A stretch of DNA of 64,000 bases, from contig JAIBAK010000007.1 of NCBI GenBank assembly GCA_019695215.1, positions 1,149 to 65,148 on the forward strand, given 5' to 3'. Below are positions 2,692-11,222 of this stretch, piece by piece. The DNA is from Bacteroidia bacterium (GTDB lineage Bacteria > Bacteroidota > Bacteroidia > UKL13-3). The number at the start of each line of letters is the position of its first letter. Position 1 is the stretch's first letter. Both the position numbers and the translations under genes were made by a program. Below the pieces are notes generated by a model, which was not told where the DNA came from, did not search any database, and was given only the letters and a program-made list of their open reading frames with translations.

Positions 2692-2726
2692 AAAAAAGCC
2701 CGGTGAGATTCATCGGGCTTTTTTAA
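2692..2726. terminator. Bidirectional rho-independent terminator shared by eno (+) and the convergent minus-strand operon
   Basis: AAAAAAGCCCGGTGA-GAT-TCATCGGGCTTTTTT has a 9-bp stem with an A6 run before it and a T6 run after it. It overlaps the stop codon of the minus-strand gene ending at 2723. Confidence 0.75.
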
Positions 2727-3406
2727 TCCTTTATTGGGATTAAACGGATATTGTCTATATCAATAAGAATAAAGCTTTTCACGGTCCCTTTCATCTTCTT
2801 AAATGTAATAATATCACCGTTAGGAATACCGCCAATATATATGAAATCTTGCCGTTCGTTAAGGAAAAATGTGATTGTATCTGTAAGTGTCACCCATTTT
2901 CTTTTTGGGAAAAAAGAGCTGTCGGGCGTATAAAGTGGATGATGAGTGCCACATGAGTTTTCCTTCCCAAATTCATTTGGATTTTTTAACAATCCATAAT
3001 TCAGTAGCCGATAGTTTAATTTATTGGTAGCGTACTTTGAATCCTCAGAAGTTCGCACATCTATTTTCAAAACAAAACGCCTTGGCCCAGAATTCCCCCA
3101 ATTTGTATCCAGAGGAAGTACTATATCCCCTTTTAAGTTTGCATCAGCATGTTTGTATAAACTGTTTACATGCCATAAATAGATAACCGAATAAACTTCC
3201 CCGTCCGAAGCTGTATCAGATACTGGTTTACCTTTACTTTCTTTGACAAAACCAGCAGGCCCGTTTATATAATAAATGGGCCCATTAACAGAATACATCT
3301 CCGCATTTTCCACGTAAGTTTCAAAGCTCCCATTCTTCACAATATTCTGCGATGTTACACTAAGACTGATCATGCAACAAAGAAAAACTGCTAAGGTTTT
3401 TACCAT
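2723..3406 (-). CDS. Hypothetical secreted protein with an N-terminal signal peptide. It is the last gene of cassette 1 and a candidate immunity protein for the upstream effector-like gene.
   Basis: MVKTLAVFLCCMISLSVTSQ is a signal peptide. Its start overlaps the end of the upstream gene by 7 nt. No recognisable catalytic motif. Confidence 0.55.
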   Translation of the reverse strand: MVKTLAVFLCCMISLSVTSQNIVKNGSFETYVENAEMYSVNGPIYYINGPAGFVKESKGKPVSDTASDGEVYSVIYLWHVNSLYKHADANLKGDIVLPLDTNWGNSGPRRFVLKIDVRTSEDSKYATNKLNYRLLNYGLLKNPNEFGKENSCGTHHPLYTPDSSFFPKRKWVTLTDTITFFLNERQDFIYIGGIPNGDIITFKKMKGTVKSFILIDIDNIRLIPIKD

Positions 3407-3969
3407 CTTGTATTAGTAATTATTCTACCAATTTGTTTAAATCTAGTGTTAGAAGTGCCACTACAAAAAATCTGAATCTCCACCTTTGATACATTATCAA
3501 CAATAAACTCATTACTCTGTTCAACCTCAGATTGTGTAATATTAGTAATTGTAAAGCCCCCTGCCCATCCGCTTCTTGGTTTCTGTGTTATTATACCACG
3601 AGAAAACTGTGATCTAACATTATCAGCCCGATTCTGTGATAAATTAACTCGCCTTAATAAATCTGCTAGCCCTTCCGGTGTTTCATAATCAATAGTTGCA
3701 GAAAGAACCATTTTACTCGTTATATAAACAGCATCTTCACTAAGGATAAGGGAATTGAGCGTGTTCAGACCTGCCAGTTGAGTCTCATTAAGAATAGCAC
3801 TCCAATTTGGAAAATTTATAGACGCTATTGGCAAGGGGTCAAGGGGTCTTGTCAAAAAATTTCCATCCCTATTTTCTGGTGCTATCCCAAAATCAGCCTT
3901 AAAGCTAGAGAGCCAATCTTCTGATAACCTTCCCCCTTTTGCCCACGGATTTTTAAATTCGAATGCCAT
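3400..3969 (-). CDS. Effector-like protein E1. It has the conserved N-terminus MAFEFKNPWAKGG shared with E2 and E3, followed by a unique C-terminal region of unknown function.
   Basis: Its N-terminal 12 aa and the junction with the upstream gene (stop, 2 nt, ATG) are conserved with the genes at 8268-8831 and 9797-10324. No signal peptide. Confidence 0.6.
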   Translation of the reverse strand: MAFEFKNPWAKGGRLSEDWLSSFKADFGIAPENRDGNFLTRPLDPLPIASINFPNWSAILNETQLAGLNTLNSLILSEDAVYITSKMVLSATIDYETPEGLADLLRRVNLSQNRADNVRSQFSRGIITQKPRSGWAGGFTITNITQSEVEQSNEFIVDNVSKVEIQIFCSGTSNTRFKQIGRIITNTRW

Positions 3970-3971
3970 AA

Positions 3972-5654
3972 CTATGCGGGATTTGAGGTTGGATTACAAT
4001 TACACCCGCTTTGAGGCACATCGCAACAATCAGTGAATACCTTTTTGTATAAGGTGGCCTTTTCAGTTGCATCGGTAAGCCCTTCTATTATATCAATAGC
4101 TTGTTGTTTAGCTACGTTTTCAAGATTAGCCTGCACAACAGCTGCATCCTGTAACTTGAGGTTGAAGCAATCCAAAGCCTCGCCCTGTCCCAGCAAAGCA
4201 TCAACAATTACTGAGTCAGTAGGTAACACGCGGCTTTCTACACTTTTTATTATACCATTAACTGTAATCCCCTCAGCCGTCATAGAAAGTCCTGTGTTTT
4301 TACGGAAGTAATCTTCAGTAAATTTCACACTACCTGTAGCGGAATCGTAAACATTCTCCGTTCTTTTTTCATAAAAGGTTTGCCTGGTTCCGGTGTAATC
4401 ATATACACTGTAATATTGGTCAACTATATCCTTAAAAACGTTGTCGGCATCTGTGGTGTTATTGAAAATACTTTTAAGTAAGGCTAATAATCCATCAACT
4501 TTAACTACTTGTTTAGTTTCTTCATACCCATTGGTATAAACAAATGAAACATCATCCAGATAAGTTATTGTAATGAGTTCCTGATTGAGTTGACGAAAAA
4601 CAAAATTGAGTACCCGACTTTTGTTTATATTTTCCAATATCCTAACAATACTGGTTTCGGTAGAGGTGGTTTCTGAGGTAGAGGTCTCTGTATTGATATC
4701 AAGTTTTCGGGATACCACTGATTTCTGAACCTGCTTTGATATTGCATTTGCCAATAATTTAATGTTCTCAGCTCGCAGCCCATTCATTGTAACTCCATTG
4801 GAGGAGCTACTCGAAAAGGAAGCTGCTCCTTTGCCACCGAACAATGGTATATTTAAGCCTGAACCGCTCTGTGAAGCCATATTATATCCCCCTGACTCTG
4901 TATGACTTTGAAGGCTGTCAATCTGAAGCATCTTTTCAAGCTCCTGGGTACTATCATTTGTTAAAGAATCAATAACATTCTGATAGTCTTTTTTGCTTTG
5001 GGTTGTTTGCTTATAACTCTTAATACTGATGGTGGTTTTCTCGCCCGGCAGCAATGTAAAAGTCTTAACAGTTTCTCCCGCACCGTAATCTCCAAGGTAA
5101 GTATTTACTCGATAATGCTCTATTACTGTAAGTCTTGGAACTGCACTAGCTGGTTGTTGCCTGAATTCAATTTTTTGATTGCCCATAATATCCACAACTG
5201 TTACAGGCATTCCATAAAGAGATTGAACTGCAATGCTACTTACAGCTTGTCCGGCAATAGTATAATCAGCAACCGGACTTGAAGTAGGGGCTGATTCAAA
5301 ACCCACCAAACTTGCAAGTGAATACTGTGGCGCAGCACTTACTGTTGGAGTTTCCTCTTCTGAATTTACATTTACAATATTGGGTGTGCCTACAGCTATA
5401 AAGTTATTTGCCATACGCGCGGTAATAGTTGAAGCATCCAGTCCGGCAACTATATCATAGTAGTTACCGCTAGGGGGCGAATCAAAACCTGCACCAGTTT
5501 TAAAATAGCTGCTGTTCACATCTAAGGGAATGTAAGCATTGGCAACAAACCCATTTGTTTGCGGAATGTTGTAATCAAGTTTGGGTGTTGAACCTGTTCC
5601 CCAATCGGTCATTGGATCTTTGTTGATGCAGCTTGATGGTGTTGTTTCTGGCAT
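3972..5654 (-). CDS. Hypothetical 560-aa protein. No signal peptide, Ser/Thr-rich, with a Cys-rich C-terminus ...LYKKVFTDCCDVPQSGCNCNPTSNPA.
   Basis: Long ORF with coding-like composition. Its last ~33 codons are duplicated in the 51-aa fusion ORFs at 8834-8989 and 10327-10482. Confidence 0.6.
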   Translation of the reverse strand: MPETTPSSCINKDPMTDWGTGSTPKLDYNIPQTNGFVANAYIPLDVNSSYFKTGAGFDSPPSGNYYDIVAGLDASTITARMANNFIAVGTPNIVNVNSEEETPTVSAAPQYSLASLVGFESAPTSSPVADYTIAGQAVSSIAVQSLYGMPVTVVDIMGNQKIEFRQQPASAVPRLTVIEHYRVNTYLGDYGAGETVKTFTLLPGEKTTISIKSYKQTTQSKKDYQNVIDSLTNDSTQELEKMLQIDSLQSHTESGGYNMASQSGSGLNIPLFGGKGAASFSSSSSNGVTMNGLRAENIKLLANAISKQVQKSVVSRKLDINTETSTSETTSTETSIVRILENINKSRVLNFVFRQLNQELITITYLDDVSFVYTNGYEETKQVVKVDGLLALLKSIFNNTTDADNVFKDIVDQYYSVYDYTGTRQTFYEKRTENVYDSATGSVKFTEDYFRKNTGLSMTAEGITVNGIIKSVESRVLPTDSVIVDALLGQGEALDCFNLKLQDAAVVQANLENVAKQQAIDIIEGLTDATEKATLYKKVFTDCCDVPQSGCNCNPTSNPA

Positions 5655-5692: not shown

Positions 5693-6682
5693 TTATGAAC
5701 TATAGTTATGAATAACTTTATGATTAAACACATAGCCGTTGCGAGTGGTAACGGTTACGTAATACAATCCGGAGCTTGAAATAAAAGGGAGTGCCAGCAT
5801 ATTTCTATTATCAATATGGGAAGATTGAACAACCCGTCCCATTAAATCTGTGATAACTATTTCAGTAATTGCATCCTGTTCACACAAATATTTTATTTCA
5901 AGATTCTCCATTACCGGGTTAATAATTTCAGGTATGACAGAACTTATTGGTGAAGAAACTCCTGTCGGGTTAGCTTTACCTGCCAAAATATTTATCTCCG
6001 CCTGTGTTAATATCCTGCTATAAAATCTGGCTTCGTCAAGTTTACCGTCATACCAATGCCCCATATTTGTATTAGTTAAACTCTGTGGTGTCGCATCGGG
6101 CACTTTCCCCGCGAACGAAACAGTCTTCACTTTTGCAGCGTCTATATACAAATCAATTACGGAAGTACTTCTGTTCACGTTTATTGATAGATGATGCCAC
6201 TGATTATCTAAAAGGGCTGTATTGGTATAGAGCAATTCCGCCTGGTCCGACAGAAAACTTGCTCTAATAATAAAATCAAATTGCCCCTTTACAAACTCAT
6301 TTGCAATTAAACTGACTCCCCTGTCATAAGGAGCATCAGTAGCATATAAAAAATCAATTTCATTTTGGTCATTTGTCATAAACCAGAATGAAATATTAAA
6401 ACTTGTAGAAGTACCAAAGGAGAGTGCTCCGTTAGAAACATTCATTTTTATTGCTGCATCTGATGAAAACAGCAATGCCTGATTTAGGTTGCTTTTTCTA
6501 TCGTAGGTGAAGTTAACTGTCCCCCCGCTGGCTAAAAATTTTGTAACCGTTGCCCCATTACCGGAAGCATCAGAAAGACTATTTGTAAACGGCAAATACA
6601 TAACGAGGCCCTGAGTGAGATCCTGACAGAAAGCATATCCTGAAATTGTCATTAAGATGATGACCAAATAAACTCTTTTCAT
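5693..6682 (-). CDS. Secreted LamG / concanavalin-A-like lectin domain protein with a C-terminal sorting domain for type IX secretion (T9SS)
   Basis: Signal peptide MKRVYLVIILMTISGYAFCQ. The LamG-like core includes DNQWHHLSINVNRSTSVIDLYIDAAKVKTV and GKLDEARFYSRILTQAEI. The C-terminal ~70 aa (...GLYYVTVTTRNGYVFNHKVIHN) match the T9SS CTD pattern. Confidence 0.7.
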   Translation of the reverse strand: MKRVYLVIILMTISGYAFCQDLTQGLVMYLPFTNSLSDASGNGATVTKFLASGGTVNFTYDRKSNLNQALLFSSDAAIKMNVSNGALSFGTSTSFNISFWFMTNDQNEIDFLYATDAPYDRGVSLIANEFVKGQFDFIIRASFLSDQAELLYTNTALLDNQWHHLSINVNRSTSVIDLYIDAAKVKTVSFAGKVPDATPQSLTNTNMGHWYDGKLDEARFYSRILTQAEINILAGKANPTGVSSPISSVIPEIINPVMENLEIKYLCEQDAITEIVITDLMGRVVQSSHIDNRNMLALPFISSSGLYYVTVTTRNGYVFNHKVIHNYSS

Positions 6683-6783
6683 AAGTACAAACAGTTAATA
6701 TTTTACCCAAAGTTGAAAATAATATTTCACATATGCAACTTTTTTCTCAAAAATTGTTAACTAAGATATACGGCCATTACGAT
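6626..6783 (-). promoter_or_regulatory. Conserved upstream block, copy 1. It covers the putative promoter/operator, the 5'UTR and the first ~19 codons. The 18-nt core AAAATYGTYAACTAAGAT lies at 6749-6767 (plus strand).
   Basis: Near-identical to 8933-9090 and 10426-10563. The core motif recurs at 11148-11165. Each copy sits 62-85 nt upstream of a minus-strand ATG. Confidence 0.55.
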
Positions 6784-6848
6784 AAATCCATCCTGCACAT
6801 GGTGGGGCTATGAGTTTAGGTCAATAACAAAACGGCCAGGCTTTACTA

Positions 6849-7520
6849 CTACTCCTTCCATGCTTGCTGAACTTCCTTCAACGCTAATTCCATTAACAAA
6901 AAAATTCGGTTAACAGTCCCCCTTAATTTTTGCAGTTCATCAGGCAGCTCTTTTACGGGATGTGGTCCATCAAAATAAAAATACCAAAAACTTTTTATCT
7001 CCTTATCACTACGCTTAGCTAATAATTCCAGGAAAACACTAGTATCAGATTTTAATTTCTCCTGCATTGCGTGCTGAAAATAACCCACACCATCAGCATA
7101 CCACCTGCCATTGATACTTATATCAATCATTCGGTTGTAATATTGATTTTTGGGTATTACAGTTAATTTAAAAAATGCTTCTACATATAAATAAGCTTTG
7201 TTATATAAGGGGCTGTTGAAATCAGAAACCGGCTCTCCTAAAGGGTCTTTGTCTGAGTATCCAAATAAATGGTTGAACAAGTTAAACGTATTTGGAAAAG
7301 CAGCAAAATATTCTTGTTGATACTTAATTGTATATGGTGAGGAAGATACTTTTTGATATGCCCTTTTTAATTGCTCCGCTTTTTTTATTCCGTTTAACTG
7401 AGTATCCGCAACATTTGCATTTGCAATATTTCGGCAAGTTATATTCGCTGTACAACTTGAAAACAATTGACTAAACAATACTATAATAAATAATTTCATA
7501 TCATCGAATGGGTAGGTCAA
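6849..7520 (-). CDS. Hypothetical lipoprotein or secreted protein and candidate immunity protein. The real start is probably the internal Met at 7499 (MKLFIIVLFSQLFSSCTA).
   Basis: Signal peptide with a lipobox-like SSC. It lies between effector-like gene E2 and the upstream block of cassette 1. Confidence 0.5.
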   Translation of the reverse strand: MTYPFDDMKLFIIVLFSQLFSSCTANITCRNIANANVADTQLNGIKKAEQLKRAYQKVSSSPYTIKYQQEYFAAFPNTFNLFNHLFGYSDKDPLGEPVSDFNSPLYNKAYLYVEAFFKLTVIPKNQYYNRMIDISINGRWYADGVGYFQHAMQEKLKSDTSVFLELLAKRSDKEIKSFWYFYFDGPHPVKELPDELQKLRGTVNRIFLLMELALKEVQQAWKE

Positions 7521-7557: not shown

Positions 7558-8256
7558 CTATTGAGGTTCTACTTTGAACCACCATTTAGATTTAGGATGC
7601 CCGCTTGTAATCTTAAAAACTAATTTGCTTACTCCCTTCAAAGGTATAGTTACAGTTTGTATACTGTTAGTATTAGTCATTTCTGTTTTATAAAGTTGTA
7701 ACCCATTTTTATCTTCTACTATCAGCTGGTCTGATTCATTGTAAAAATGATAACTCAACCTTATCGCTGTTACTTTGCCAGTGAGTTGCAGTTCTTTTAC
7801 GCTGTTTCCTTCGCCAAGATAGGAATCCTCTTTATTAGCATCTGGAATTCTTTCATACTTTTCAACGATACACTCTCCATAATTAAAACAGATTTTTAGT
7901 AATTTACCTGTACCTCCTTTTATATACAGGGTAAGTTCCGCACTGGAATCGTGAAAGGTGACGTTCGTAGTAAACTTCCTGTTCTTTAAGGTTATTTTTT
8001 TATCCTTGGGATCATATATCCAATTCCCTTGCTCTATTGTTGGAATTTGGGTAGTAACACTGTAACAATCATTAAGAATTTGGTAATTGCCATCAGGATT
8101 AAATACTAACATATCAGGACACTCAACTGCTTGCTTTTTACTATTCTCAACACCCTTATATTGCCATCTACCGATTATTTTATGAGAAGCATTTTGAGCA
8201 TAGGCAATACCGCTTATCAACAATGCAATCAGAATAAAATTTACACCTGTTTTCAT
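7558..8256 (-). CDS. Hypothetical secreted protein with a signal peptide. It lies immediately downstream of the M23 effector and is a candidate immunity protein.
   Basis: MKTGVNFILIALLISGIAYAQ is a signal peptide. It is co-oriented with E2 at an 11-nt spacing. Confidence 0.55.
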   Translation of the reverse strand: MKTGVNFILIALLISGIAYAQNASHKIIGRWQYKGVENSKKQAVECPDMLVFNPDGNYQILNDCYSVTTQIPTIEQGNWIYDPKDKKITLKNRKFTTNVTFHDSSAELTLYIKGGTGKLLKICFNYGECIVEKYERIPDANKEDSYLGEGNSVKELQLTGKVTAIRLSYHFYNESDQLIVEDKNGLQLYKTEMTNTNSIQTVTIPLKGVSKLVFKITSGHPKSKWWFKVEPQ

Positions 8257-8267
8257 ACTTATATCGA

Positions 8268-8831
8268 TTAGGGTCCAAAGAAATATGGTGTTGGGTCAAC
8301 CCATTTGCCTCCTATCATTACCTGAACATGAATATGTGGTGTTATATCCTTGGGATAACCCAAATCTCCTAAATTAGCGGCCGTTCCTATTAATGTTTTT
8401 CCCCCAATTACAGTGTATGGACTCCATGCATTGATTTCACTAGGAATATTTACATATAAAATTCTCACTTTCTCAATCTCAATTGCAGAATCTGAAGGTG
8501 TAATATCTATCATTGGTTTTCCAGATGATGAGCCAATATAATTTACCGCTTTCCCAGTTACTGGAGATACTAAATCTTGCCCAACTATGGTTAAAATATC
8601 TATACCCATATGTTTACGGGCACCTCCGCTACGAGGAGCACCAAAGTGACCATTCCCATATGCATCCTGCCCCCTCAAAGCACCTCCACTTGGGTTGAAT
8701 AATAAGCTTACATCCGTGATATTCCTTTTAATAGGTATAACTGCCCCCTCTAGTGCCGTACCATTTATTCCAAACCATTTATCAAACTCTCTGTTACCTT
8801 TTCCCCAAGGGTTTTTAAATTTCAATGCCAT
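8268..8831 (-). CDS. Effector-like protein E2. Conserved N-terminus MALKFKNPWGKGNREFDKWFGINGTALEG... fused to a C-terminal M23 (LytM/lysostaphin-type) metallopeptidase domain.
   Basis: H-x-x-x-D motif (RKHMGIDIL) and an HxH motif in TPHIHVQV, aligned with the M23 consensus GPHLHFEV, at the spacing typical of peptidase M23. N-terminal 36 aa almost identical to E3. No signal peptide. Confidence 0.7.
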   Translation of the reverse strand: MALKFKNPWGKGNREFDKWFGINGTALEGAVIPIKRNITDVSLLFNPSGGALRGQDAYGNGHFGAPRSGGARKHMGIDILTIVGQDLVSPVTGKAVNYIGSSSGKPMIDITPSDSAIEIEKVRILYVNIPSEINAWSPYTVIGGKTLIGTAANLGDLGYPKDITPHIHVQVMIGGKWVDPTPYFFGP

Positions 8832-8833
8832 AT

Positions 8834-8989
8834 TTATTCGGGATTTGAGGTTGGATTACAATTACACCAGCTTTGAGGAACATCGCAACAATAAGTAAAC
8901 CCCTTTTTGTATAAGGTGGTGGCATGATTAGTACAGAAAAGAGAACCCGAAATTGTAATTAAAAGCATGACCAAATAAATTCTTTTCAT
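8834..8989 (-). CDS. Unannotated 51-aa fusion ORF: MKRIYLVMLLITISGSLFCTNHATTLYKKGFTYCCDVPQSWCNCNPTSNPE. It joins the signal peptide of the LamG gene to the Cys-rich tail of the 560-aa gene.
   Basis: Read on the minus strand. ATG at 8989, TAA at 8834-8836, then AT, then the E2 ATG. Residues 1-19 match the LamG N-terminus and residues 24-51 match the 560-aa C-terminus. Its first 81 nt are identical to the ORF at 10327-10482. Confidence 0.6.
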   Translation of the reverse strand: MKRIYLVMLLITISGSLFCTNHATTLYKKGFTYCCDVPQSWCNCNPTSNPE

Positions 8990-9090
8990 AAGCACAAACA
9001 GTTAATATTCTATCCAAAGTTGAAAATAATATTTCACATAAGCAACTTTTTTATCAAAAATTGTCAACTAAGGTATACGGCCATTACGAT
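8933..9090 (-). promoter_or_regulatory. Conserved upstream block, copy 2, with the core motif at 9056-9074
   Basis: Aligned with copies 1 and 3. It sits upstream of the fusion ORF and E2. Confidence 0.55.
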
Positions 9091-9168
9091 CGAGAACTCC
9101 CCCGGCAATATATGTGGATGATATTTGTTTACATGCATTAATCTCGGATTATTCAAGCTTTGCTGCTA

Positions 9169-9768
9169 TTACCAAGTGTAATTTTTTATATCAAACCTTT
9201 CAAGAAAGGTTATTTTCCATCTTCCTTTTTCCTTTTTCGCTTTAACAAGGTAATCAAAATCGCCTCCCCATGTCCAATAATAGGTTGCAAAGTCATTATC
9301 CAATTTAATATTCTTAATCATTAATCTACTCCATATATCCGAAGGGTAATCCTGACAGTTACACCATTCGTCAGCATCATTTCCGTAAGGAGGTAATTCT
9401 CCTTTATAGTATTTAACCTGGTTATCATTTAGTTCTTTGTCTAGGTACAACGCAATTTTCATGTAGTTATCTATAAATTCCTGAGTAAAGAAATTTGTTT
9501 GGGATAATTCTTCCATTCTGGATTTCTGAACAAGCCAATCAATCCGCTCATAAATGCTGTCATTATCACTTGTAAGAGGGAAATCTCTATTGGTGTCAAC
9601 CTCATGCCACTTCAACAAATTCTTTGTTAAAGCCAAAAGTTCTAAACTATCAGTAGATAACTGTATATAGGCATGGCTATTTGTACCTGTGTCTTTCTGA
9701 GTATGTACACAACTAAAACTAATTACAAGTATTGAAACTGCTGATACCAGGCCATTAAATAATTTCAT
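9169..9768 (-). CDS. Hypothetical lipoprotein and candidate immunity protein for E3
   Basis: MKLFNGLVSAVSILVISFSCVHTQ is a signal peptide with a lipobox Cys. It lies directly downstream of E3. Confidence 0.55.
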   Translation of the reverse strand: MKLFNGLVSAVSILVISFSCVHTQKDTGTNSHAYIQLSTDSLELLALTKNLLKWHEVDTNRDFPLTSDNDSIYERIDWLVQKSRMEELSQTNFFTQEFIDNYMKIALYLDKELNDNQVKYYKGELPPYGNDADEWCNCQDYPSDIWSRLMIKNIKLDNDFATYYWTWGGDFDYLVKAKKEKGRWKITFLERFDIKNYTW

Positions 9769-9796: not shown

Positions 9797-10324
9797 TCAT
9801 GAGTTATTGTCAGTCCAACGGAATATTGCGTACATAGAATTTCTATACCCACTTCCGGGAAATTCGTTTTTCTCCTTAAAATCACTTAACCATTGATTAC
9901 CGTTGTACATATCAATATGACCATACTGGCTACCCCCGGGATATGGTTGAAACACCCTTATATCTCCTTTAATAGGTGAATAATTTGTACTACTTAAAGT
10001 ATTGAATCCCCAGCCCTGCAAAAAAGGTCCATAATCTTTTGCGGATACTGGATGAGGGTTTGTATTTATACCGCCCGCTTCTAAAGCTAATCTGACATAT
10101 TTAGCACATGCGTGCTGAGAAACTACTTTAGCATTATTGTCTAACCAGTTTACAGCTTTGTCAATATTGAAACTCGATTGGAATCCACCCACATTAACAT
10201 TACCACCATCCGAAATATCTCTTTTAATAGGTATAACTGACCCCTCCAATGCCGTACCATTTATTCCAAACCATTTATCAAACTCTCTATTACCTTTTCC
10301 CCAAGGATTTTTAAAGGAAGCCAT
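9797..10324 (-). CDS. Effector-like protein E3. Conserved N-terminus MASFKNPWGKGNREFDKWFGINGTALEG... with a C-terminal putative CHAP/NlpC-P60-like Cys-His hydrolase domain.
   Basis: A candidate catalytic Cys (SQHACAKYV) and a candidate His (GDIRVFQ...GHIDMY) sit at the spacing seen in CHAP amidases. The domain call is tentative. Confidence 0.55.
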   Translation of the reverse strand: MASFKNPWGKGNREFDKWFGINGTALEGSVIPIKRDISDGGNVNVGGFQSSFNIDKAVNWLDNNAKVVSQHACAKYVRLALEAGGINTNPHPVSAKDYGPFLQGWGFNTLSSTNYSPIKGDIRVFQPYPGGSQYGHIDMYNGNQWLSDFKEKNEFPGSGYRNSMYAIFRWTDNNS

Positions 10325-10326
10325 AA

Positions 10327-10482
10327 CTACAGAGAATTTGAGCTGGGATTACAATTACACCCACTTTGCGGCACATCGCAACAATCAGTAAACACCTTTT
10401 TGTATAAGGTGGTGGCATGATTAGTACAGAAAAGAGAACCCGAAATTGTAATTAAAAGCATGACCAAATAAATTCTTTTCAT
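10327..10482 (-). CDS. Unannotated 51-aa fusion ORF, copy 2: MKRIYLVMLLITISGSLFCTNHATTLYKKVFTDCCDVPQSGCNCNPSSNSL
   Basis: Same architecture as 8834-8989. The stop TAG at 10327-10329 is followed by 2 nt and then the E3 ATG. Confidence 0.6.
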   Translation of the reverse strand: MKRIYLVMLLITISGSLFCTNHATTLYKKVFTDCCDVPQSGCNCNPSSNSL

Positions 10483-10563
10483 ATGCTAAACTTTAAGATT
10501 ACAGTCAAAGTTGAGAATAATATTTCACATTCGCAACTCTTTTTAAAATCGTCAACTAAGATG
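10426..10563 (-). promoter_or_regulatory. Conserved upstream block, copy 3, with the core motif at 10545-10562
   Basis: Aligned with copies 1 and 2. Confidence 0.5.
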
Positions 10564-10612
10564 CATATATTGTTACAAGCGTTATTTTGACCAATACCTC
10601 AAAAATGTATGC

Positions 10613-11086
10613 TTATTTATTAGGTGGTAGAATAAAATAATTAGTTAAAAAGATTCTGAAGCATTCAATTTGAGCACCCACTGCTCCAATATCCGCATCA
10701 GTATTATAAAAAGAAGGATTTTGCACCACACTACAAAACGACTCATAAAGCGACCTGTGAGAATTGGTATTATATTGTTGTTCAACTTGAGCAAAAACAG
10801 AGTCAAGTGTATTTTTTTTAATCAACCTGACTAACGGGGTGCCCTTGTTATAAAGAGAAAGATATAAGTCAAAGTACTCCTCATGAATAGTATCTCCATT
10901 AGTTGAACTTTTGTGATAAACTTTGAACAAATCTTTAAATACATTGAACGACTTAGTATCCCTTTCTAATTTTATTGCAACTCTGGGAAGTAGCGTATCA
11001 TTCAAGCAAACGAGTCTTTCCTGCGGATAGCAGATAGCTATATGGTGCAAACTGCCAAAAAGGAAGATGAAAAATAAATGCTTCAT
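10613..11086 (-). CDS. Hypothetical secreted protein with a signal peptide, preceded by a fourth copy of the AAAATCGTCAACTAAGAT motif. Possibly an orphan immunity-like gene.
   Basis: MKHLFFIFLFGSLHHIAICYPQ is a signal peptide. The motif at 11148-11165 lies 62 nt upstream of the ATG. Confidence 0.5.
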   Translation of the reverse strand: MKHLFFIFLFGSLHHIAICYPQERLVCLNDTLLPRVAIKLERDTKSFNVFKDLFKVYHKSSTNGDTIHEEYFDLYLSLYNKGTPLVRLIKKNTLDSVFAQVEQQYNTNSHRSLYESFCSVVQNPSFYNTDADIGAVGAQIECFRIFLTNYFILPPNK

Positions 11087-11222
11087 TTTAATCCCATAAA
11101 GTGAATAATACTAATGCAAGCTACTAAAAGAGCAGCGCATTTCATATAAAATCGTCAACTAAGATAGACGCCCTGTTTATAACCCAATGCCTGAGTTAAA
11201 GCAATAACCTTAATTTTGCAAA

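Follow-up and report, generated by a model that had tools for sequence, protein, structure and literature searches.

The window analysed here, a 64,000-nucleotide stretch of DNA from a Bacteroidia metagenome-assembled genome (MAG), carries two closely related 51-codon open reading frames (ORFs) on its minus strand. The question they raise is whether each encodes a functional small peptide or is the leftover of a larger arrangement. Copy 2 (10327-10482, minus strand) translates as MKRIYLVMLLITISGSLFCTNHATTLYKKVFTDCCDVPQSGCNCNPSSNSL, the putative product including the stretch TNHATTLYKKVFTDCCDVPQSGCNCNPSSNSL, and copy 1 is its paralogue at 8834-8989 (minus strand). Both ORFs are unannotated in the source MAG, gene callers left the ORF uncalled in every contig carrying one, and the exact 51-aa sequences are absent from a 15-billion-protein collection.

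The two copies show no differences in their first 88 nt (0/88) and 14 differences in the remaining 68 nt, all of them at ORF positions 89-156 (Fisher P = 4e-6). An earlier reading of this DNA made from the letters alone, hereafter the sequence-only reading, had described the 5' part as identical over 81 nt; the identity holds, but the measured length is 88 nt. The tail substitutions that it listed were reproduced, i.e., six non-synonymous codons (copy 1/copy 2: G/V, Y/D, W/G, T/S, P/S, and E/L) and four synonymous ones (GTT/GTG, CCT/CCG, AGC/AGT, and CCA/CCC), together with different stop codons (TAA/TAG). Both ORFs translate as written, and alignment confirmed that the frame and the four cysteines are kept in both copies. 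The similarity is not a chance one: a repeat search recovered a 167-nt family, with 90% identity between copy 1 and copy 2 and 63% identity to the end of a 560-aa gene, as well as a 158-nt repeat (89%) that joins the promoter and leader of copy 1 to a 329-aa gene. These repeat alignments bear out the proposal that the ORF is a fusion, with its leader derived from the 329-aa gene and its tail from the 560-aa gene.

The duplication of this ORF is real. Because the window comes from a MAG, a type of assembly in which repeats are prone to error, the second copy could in principle have arisen during assembly or binning from a repeat that was collapsed or chimeric. However, two ENA assemblies (ERZ27268179 and ERZ27268162) each contain both copies on one contig and match the window base for base, two further contigs (Logan SRR14610229 and ENA ERZ27268129) carry an identical copy 2, and different, intact toxin and immunity genes lie behind each copy. 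We therefore treat an assembly artefact as ruled out by independent assemblies, with a negligible residual probability.

Alignment and repeat-family analysis resolved the anatomy of the chimera. Before copy 2 lies a promoter/5'UTR-like upstream block (10483..10560, minus strand), recognized by the motif CTTAGTTGACGATTTT and the block GTTGC..ATGTGAAATATTATTCTCAACTTTG. Codons 1-19 (10426..10482, minus strand) encode the signal-peptide leader MKRIYLVMLLITISGSLFC and come from the 329-aa LamG/T9SS gene; this leader is 82.5% identical to the main leader, 100% identical to that of copy 1, and 95% identical to that of a cassette in a sister strain (L090). Codons 20-22 (ACT AAT CAT, encoding TNH; 10417..10425, minus strand) form a 9-nt filler that has no recognizable source and is the same in copy 1 and in the sister-strain cassette (L090/L091). 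Codons 23-51 plus the stop (10327..10416, minus strand) encode the tail ATTLYKKVFTDCCDVPQSGCNCNPSSNSL* and reproduce the 3' end of the 560-aa gene, hereafter the carrier gene, with 7 differences from the window's main tail over the 75 nt compared. Copy 1 has its leader at 8933-8989, its filler at 8924-8932, and its tail with stop at 8834-8923. The copied carrier portion comprises the last 28-29 codons, and the homology runs on through the stop and a 2-nt spacer into the beginning of the next gene, with a toxin ATG lying 2 nt after the stop of each 51-codon ORF; at the other end, each cassette begins with an 82-94% identical copy of the operon upstream block and the ATG with its leader. The leader/TNH/tail junction is identical in all three cassettes, which points to a single ancestral fusion event.

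The copied upstream block presumably acts as a promoter, and a putative near-consensus Bacteroidota-type -7 element (CAACTTTG) can be read in it by eye. A sigma-70 promoter and terminator scan, which is not applicable to Bacteroidota promoters, gave no enrichment over shuffles, and the only Rfam matches to structured RNA were tRNAs at 30.2-32.1 kb. The motif CTTAGTT(G/A)AC(A/G)ATTTT is found at four minus-strand sites (approximately 6770-6785, 9077-9092, 10553-10568, and 11150-11165), once before a 157-aa gene and otherwise where each repeated upstream block has its 5' edge; it could mark the boundary of a duplicated unit or a regulator site.

The locus that contains these ORFs reads, in minus-strand order, as the 157-aa gene, cassette 2, cassette 1, a 223-aa gene, and the main operon, and all of the following features lie on this strand. 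The main operon begins with the 329-aa gene, which encodes a LamG domain and a T9SS C-terminal sorting domain and together with its upstream region (5693..6790) is the source of the promoter and leader. It continues with the 560-aa carrier gene (3972..5654), whose last 28 codons are the source of the chimeric ORF tails, and a 189-aa main-position toxin (3400..3969) that begins MAFEFKNPWAKGG and starts 2 nt after the carrier stop. The operon ends with a putative immunity protein of 227 aa (2723..3406) that has a signal peptide and is 53% identical to its counterpart in a close relative (L002). Cassette 2 encodes a 175-aa toxin (9797..10324) that combines the N-terminal module FKNPWGKGNREFDKWFGINGTALEG with a peptidoglycan amidase-like C-terminal domain; residues 57-166 match PDB 4hz9_A (E = 5.9e-21), which we take to be the T6SS amidase effector Tae3 of Ralstonia pickettii, and the protein also matches a PHROG endolysin (E = 1.9e-14) and, weakly, Tae4. 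Directly after it lies a putative immunity protein of 199 aa (9169..9768) with a lipoprotein-like signal peptide. Cassette 1 encodes a 187-aa toxin (8268..8831) in which that N-terminal module is joined to an M23/LECT2-like metallopeptidase motif (weak matches to Pfam M23, a PHROG metallo-endopeptidase, and LECT2 chains at E = 0.008), followed by a putative 232-aa immunity protein with a signal peptide (7558..8256) that is 92% identical to its L090/L091 orthologue. The 175-aa and 187-aa toxins share about 35 N-terminal residues (MA.FKNPWGKGNREFDKWFGINGTALEG) and are unrelated beyond them, and the main 189-aa toxin shares only its first ~12 residues with the cassette toxins. A small exported protein follows every toxin in the window, its immunity role being putative and predicted from its position and signal sequence.

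Two further exported proteins accompany these units. An exported 223-aa protein between cassette 1 and the main operon (6849..7520, minus strand) is absent from L090/L091 and has no homologue in the carrier loci that were fetched; it is possibly another orphan immunity gene. The 157-aa gene (10613..11086, minus strand) lies upstream of cassette 2, is preceded by CTTAGTTGACGATTTT, the motif that opens each cassette, and has no cognate toxin in the window. Homologues of its product (27-40% identity) occur in about ten other carrier loci, and in the four of these loci in which the position was checked they either follow a Tae4-family toxin directly (L087-L089) or overlap the gene after a Tae4 toxin (L097). 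The 157-aa protein thus looks like an orphan immunity protein, since its homologues lie near Tae4 toxins and the window lacks such a toxin. The arrangement as a whole reads as a polymorphic toxin system, in which a conserved carrier is followed by a variable, N-terminally tagged cell-wall toxin and an exported immunity protein, and the two cassettes as its predicted auxiliary toxin-immunity cassettes. No T6SS structural or adaptor genes were detected in the toxin locus (2.7-11.1 kb) with Pfam and NCBIfam models. A programmed -1 frameshift that would fuse the carrier or the mini-ORF to the toxin was considered and rejected, since in 16 loci only 2-10 codons ahead of the ATG are open in the toxin frame.

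The 560-aa carrier belongs to a large family with more than 1000 homologues (1797 clusters at 50% identity) in Bacteroidota, Acidobacteriota, Alphaproteobacteria, and Gammaproteobacteria. It has no match in Pfam, NCBIfam, PADLOC, or PHROG, and 63 family members likewise lack a Pfam match; a sequence profile search of the PDB returned only spurious geminin matches, a BFVD search returned one uncharacterised giant-virus protein, and our literature search found no paper describing the carrier family or the FxNPW tag. The C-terminal tail (...A.LYKKVFxxCCDVPQSGCxC) is the most conserved segment of the carrier, even among members that are ~36% identical overall. Across 114 family tails, the CC pair is present in all 114 and V, I, or M occupies the last-but-one position of the KKVF motif. 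The family also has a nearly invariant cysteine at residue 8-9 (..SSC..PFIKL) and the invariant blocks GEALDC(Y/F)N and NKSRVLNFVFRQL. The 560-aa carrier lacks a signal peptide, and its AlphaFold model (pLDDT 71, or 73 for residues 168-545) is rich in very long beta-strands. No significant Foldseek match was obtained (best E 0.15 for the full model and 0.075-0.11 for residues 168-545, TM <= 0.15); the sub-threshold matches of the model are mostly aerolysin-family pore formers.

Genomic context links this family to toxins. In about 35 of 51 loci with a called downstream gene, that gene encodes an FxNPW-type N-terminus followed by a variable body, and it often starts 2 nt after the carrier stop; in Bacteroidota loci, a variable FxNPW toxin is what usually follows the carrier. 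Recognizable toxin domains in carrier loci include Tae4, peptidase M15, glucosaminidase, and DUF6402. No conserved neighbour other than the toxin itself was found across 79 loci. About 10 loci encode, upstream of the carrier, a 356-aa protein of one cluster that Pfam does not recognize; in the two that were checked, both alphaproteobacterial (L035 and L068), it immediately precedes the carrier. Five alpha- and gammaproteobacterial loci (L035, L037, L046, L068, and L078) have acidic-ended carrier tails of the form ...YKKVFGxCCEGEE... that are not followed by an FxNPW protein, and this acidic-tail proteobacterial sub-family may work differently. Three carriers of 731-754 aa (P0141, P0149, and P0152) have an extra domain that extends 130-180 residues past the CC motif, which means that the cysteine-rich segment is not always the carrier C-terminus; by eye, the extra domain of P0152 resembles a YegP/DUF1508-type repeat.

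Orphan arrays occur elsewhere in the family. In several of them (L057, L064/L104, L097/L106, L105, L110, and L111), carrier-tail fragments without a signal peptide precede toxins, and some orphan carrier tails in other lineages have no start codon. One such array (L097, 1-8725), long and degenerate, ends in an integrase fragment and contains a Tae4 toxin, pieces of MANKFxNPW toxins truncated to 30-109 aa, a 47-aa orphan carrier tail, and repeated genes for 68-80-aa cysteine-rich lipoprotein-like products between tail and toxin.

We then compared the window with its relatives. Three loci from close relatives (L001/L004 and L002) have the order DivIC-LamG-carrier-toxin-immunity-enolase, with nothing between DivIC and LamG and no cassette. 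The toxin at the same position is 266 aa in L001/L004, 189 aa in L002, and 188 aa in L090/L091, which have one cassette in addition; the window has two cassettes and extra immunity-like genes at that position. Between carA and enolase, at 1228-1363, the window contains two tandem 64-nt units that are 95% identical (TTTCATCCCCCT.CCCCCTTCTCTCATTCGCAAACC.ATCG.TGCAAGGGGGACAAAAAAGAGA), and one such unit is present at the same place in L090.

The most informative comparison is with the sister strain, which was assembled twice (L090, JGI; L091, Logan) and has ~87% background nucleotide identity to the window. Its single cassette is orthologous to cassette 1 and has an identical leader/TNH/tail junction, which indicates that the fusion arose once, before this strain split from that of the window. 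In both assemblies, which are independent of each other, the leader is interrupted by a TAA at codon 10. The cassette toxin and immunity genes are nonetheless intact behind the broken ORF, and comparison of the window with L090 shows purifying selection on both (pN/pS 0.011/0.072 for the 187-aa toxin and 0.032/0.123 for the 232-aa immunity protein).

Identity between window cassette 1 and the L090 cassette is mosaic, amounting to 75% in the upstream region, 96% in the leader, 76% in the tail, 96-98% in the toxin, and 95% in the immunity gene (tail against the rest, Fisher P = 2e-7). The upstream region of copy 1 is 88% identical to the window's own main promoter, compared to 66% for its L090 orthologue, and the cassette tail shares strain-specific synonymous states with the full-length tail of the same genome (ACT/TGC in the window, ACC/TGT in L090). 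Such patterns are what intragenomic gene conversion between repeats would produce, with the leader and toxin reflecting the younger age of the cassette and the promoter and tail having been overwritten. These findings support the suggestion of the sequence-only reading that gene conversion or recombination takes place at the repeated arms.

That reading had also proposed that identical 5' arms with diverged 3' arms may indicate constraint on the peptide, and had called for a codon-level comparison of the tails. We performed this with Nei-Gojobori counts over a 23-codon tail core. For the main tails of the window and L090, pN was 0.018 and pS 0.525. Copy 2 against the main tail gave nearly the same picture (pN 0.018, pS 0.375), whereas copy 1 gave a pN of 0.071 and pS of 0.234 against the main tail and 0.143 and 0.385, respectively, against the L090 cassette. 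The outcome split by copy: neutrality can account for the changes that separate copy 1 from the main tail (P = 0.14), while the copy 2 core differs from the main tail by five synonymous changes and one non-synonymous change, the latter at the junction codon (P about 0.001 under neutrality). Three replacements in copy 1 (V->G, D->Y, and G->W) introduce residues never seen at those positions in the 114 family tails, where V/I/M, D/E/N/S/T/P, and G/C/Q/V plus a few others occur, respectively. About half of the private changes in the copy 1 tail (8834-8923) relative to the main tail, a small sample, are G->T type transversions (GAT->TAT, GTG->GTT, GGG->TGG, and, on the other strand, GCA->GAA).

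All four cysteine codons survive even in the broken L090 cassette and the fusion is in frame in all versions, two points that count against the ORF being a mere leftover; the CC pair is universal in the 114 family tails. Constraint on the 51-aa product itself is not borne out. The ORF is interrupted in L090/L091, purifying selection is not seen in every copy, and no comparable mini-ORFs were found elsewhere. In a search of 5.8 billion protein clusters for the signal-peptide/tail fusion, only two tail-only short ORFs were returned; a metagenome locus search recovered carrier tails only, and an exact scan of metagenome contigs for the junction pattern gave 0 matches, although that collection also missed the JGI contig of L090, whose junction fits the pattern, which makes this absence weak evidence. 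Since constraint is demonstrably a property of the 560-aa family, that seen in copy 2 is most simply inherited from a full-length carrier. Most probably, then, the clean tail of copy 2 was shaped by selection while it still belonged to a full-length carrier gene, prior to capture. Selection on the tail in situ would be the alternative to such an import, with no donor full-length allele having been found for the copy 2 tail and the window's main tail being the closest one sampled.

On this basis, we consider it likely, with a probability of roughly 70%, that the ORF at 10327-10482 is a chimeric 5' remnant that heads an auxiliary toxin-immunity cassette in a polymorphic toxin locus, and is probably not a peptide gene. 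The ancestral operon would have had the order promoter, LamG/T9SS gene, 560-aa carrier, toxin, and immunity gene. One ancestral copy would then have been stripped of all sequence after codon 19 of the first gene up to the final 28-29 carrier codons, leaving the promoter, start codon, signal-peptide leader, 9-nt filler, carrier tail, stop, 2-nt spacer, and toxin ATG. This remnant unit was presumably duplicated and reloaded, copy 2 with a Tae3-like amidase and its 199-aa lipoprotein and copy 1 with an M23-like peptidase and its 232-aa protein. The repeated promoter, leader, carrier tail, and toxin N-terminal module would serve as homology arms, and exchange among these arms and with the main operon would yield the mosaic pattern. 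For copy 2 specifically, the first 88 nt, being identical to copy 1, would come from the cassette lineage; from codon 30 onward (break at nt 88/89), the tail, the 175-aa toxin, and its immunity gene may have been captured together from another full-length carrier allele, and the synonymous-rich differences would follow from a tail that accumulated its changes under selection on the 560-aa protein.

In functional terms, the cassette would be a cut-down operon that keeps the upstream block, the start codon, the tail with its stop-2 nt-ATG junction, and the toxin tag. The promoter copy would drive cassette expression, and translation of the short ORF would deliver ribosomes to the toxin start, as translation of the carrier gene may do in the main operon. 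The auxiliary toxins may load in trans on the single 560-aa carrier via their FxNPW N-termini, protection of the periplasm would fall to the immunity proteins, and the 51-aa peptide would be a by-product of this organization.

Other functions for the ORF need to be weighed against this remnant reading. One is that the ORF has been selected as a translated upstream ORF, which recruits ribosomes and terminates 2 nt before the toxin ATG to permit re-initiation. Expression of the cassette toxin would thereby no longer need the 560-aa gene. Such a role accords with the same stop-2 nt-ATG spacing in the main operon and many other loci, the copy of the operon upstream region and start codon retained by each cassette, and the in-frame fusion in every version. 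In the sister strain, however, translation would stop at codon 10, ~125 nt before the ATG of a toxin that is nevertheless intact and under purifying selection. Orphan tails elsewhere often lack a start codon at a comparable position, and an in-frame fusion has a 1-in-3 prior chance. We regard selection for this role as unlikely.

Less probable again is that the ORF encodes a Sec-exported, ~32-aa, four-cysteine mimic of the carrier tail that acts in the periplasm as a decoy or adaptor, binding the FxNPW N-terminus of incoming or resident toxins. The leader is a plausible signal peptide (MKR, a hydrophobic core, and LFC|T), the family consensus YKKVFTDCCDVPQSGCNC is complete in copy 2, whose changes are only synonymous, and the four cysteines are retained in all versions. 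Against such a peptide stand the nonsense codon in the leader of the sister strain, the three family-unseen replacements in copy 1 (one of them at a near-invariant position), the failure of protein and metagenome searches to find a homologous fusion, and the fact that gene callers never called the ORF on contigs carrying it. A bolder extension, more doubtful still, is that the 560-aa family constitutes the delivery (B) component of a widespread and so far undescribed binary antibacterial weapon that is independent of secretion systems, and docks FxNPW-tagged peptidoglycan hydrolases via its invariant YKKVF-CC-DVPQSGC tail; the mini-protein would then be an exported tail mimic that captures toxins in the periplasm, as a new broad-spectrum immunity or loading factor.

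Among known systems, the orphan cdiA-CT/cdiI and Rhs modules come closest to these auxiliary cassettes. In contact-dependent inhibition (CDI), the piece retained by orphans lies within the toxin polypeptide, and the orphans, located downstream, mostly have no signals for initiating translation (Poole et al., 2011; PMC3150448). [quoted passage not shown] The features of orphan cassettes that are present comprise a variable toxin behind a conserved segment, a retained carrier fragment, and strain-variable content at the same position. The locus differs in that its cassettes keep the end of a separate gene located upstream of the toxin, precede the main operon, and carry a copy of the upstream region, a start codon, and a signal-peptide leader, and in that its carrier family is uncharacterised; the absence of a promoter and translation start that typifies CDI orphans therefore does not apply to these cassettes.

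Orphan Rhs toxin modules are reported to be activated by recombination (Koskiniemi et al., 2014; PMC3967940). The two systems are alike in that homology between the main and orphan modules permits recombination that changes the deployed toxin, and in that their loci are mosaic; in contrast, the window locus lacks Rhs/YD repeats. Trans-loading and gene conversion are more plausible here than displacement, because simple recombination between these direct repeats would delete the carrier rather than fuse it to a spare toxin.

The T6SS amidase effectors, for which the Tae3-Tai3 structure has been described (PMC6099711), are similar at the level of the enzymes. The catalytic domain of the 175-aa toxin matches 4hz9, other loci have Tae4-family toxins behind their carriers, the immunity-like proteins are exported, and the 157-aa gene represents an orphan immunity homologue. 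On the other hand, the carrier of the window has no T6SS structural gene beside it, the 79 loci show none as a conserved neighbour, and the FxNPW toxins lie behind an uncharacterised 560-aa protein instead of VgrG, Hcp, PAAR, or a known adaptor. By analogy, the combination of a large beta-rich protein with small enzymes that have a short docking-like N-terminal module is also reminiscent of binary AB-type toxins with aerolysin- or PA-like B components. The carrier departs from aerolysin-type and AB toxins in lacking a signal peptide and any significant structural match (E >= 0.07, TM <= 0.15), and the pore-former likeness of its predicted model is best taken as a lead and not a classification.

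Overall, the 51-codon ORF is most likely a by-product, yet it offers a clean, compact view of the assembly and reshuffling of toxin-immunity cassettes, with the promoter, start codon, carrier tail, and toxin tag travelling together as homology arms. It also exposes a large carrier family that no curated domain library describes. The features of this carrier that bear on delivery are its lack of a signal peptide and of linked secretion genes, its invariant cysteine-rich tail, and its conserved N-terminal cysteine. Bacteroidota carriers sit immediately upstream of polymorphic cell-wall-degrading toxins, and the mode by which these proteins are exported and delivered could reveal a new interbacterial delivery route.
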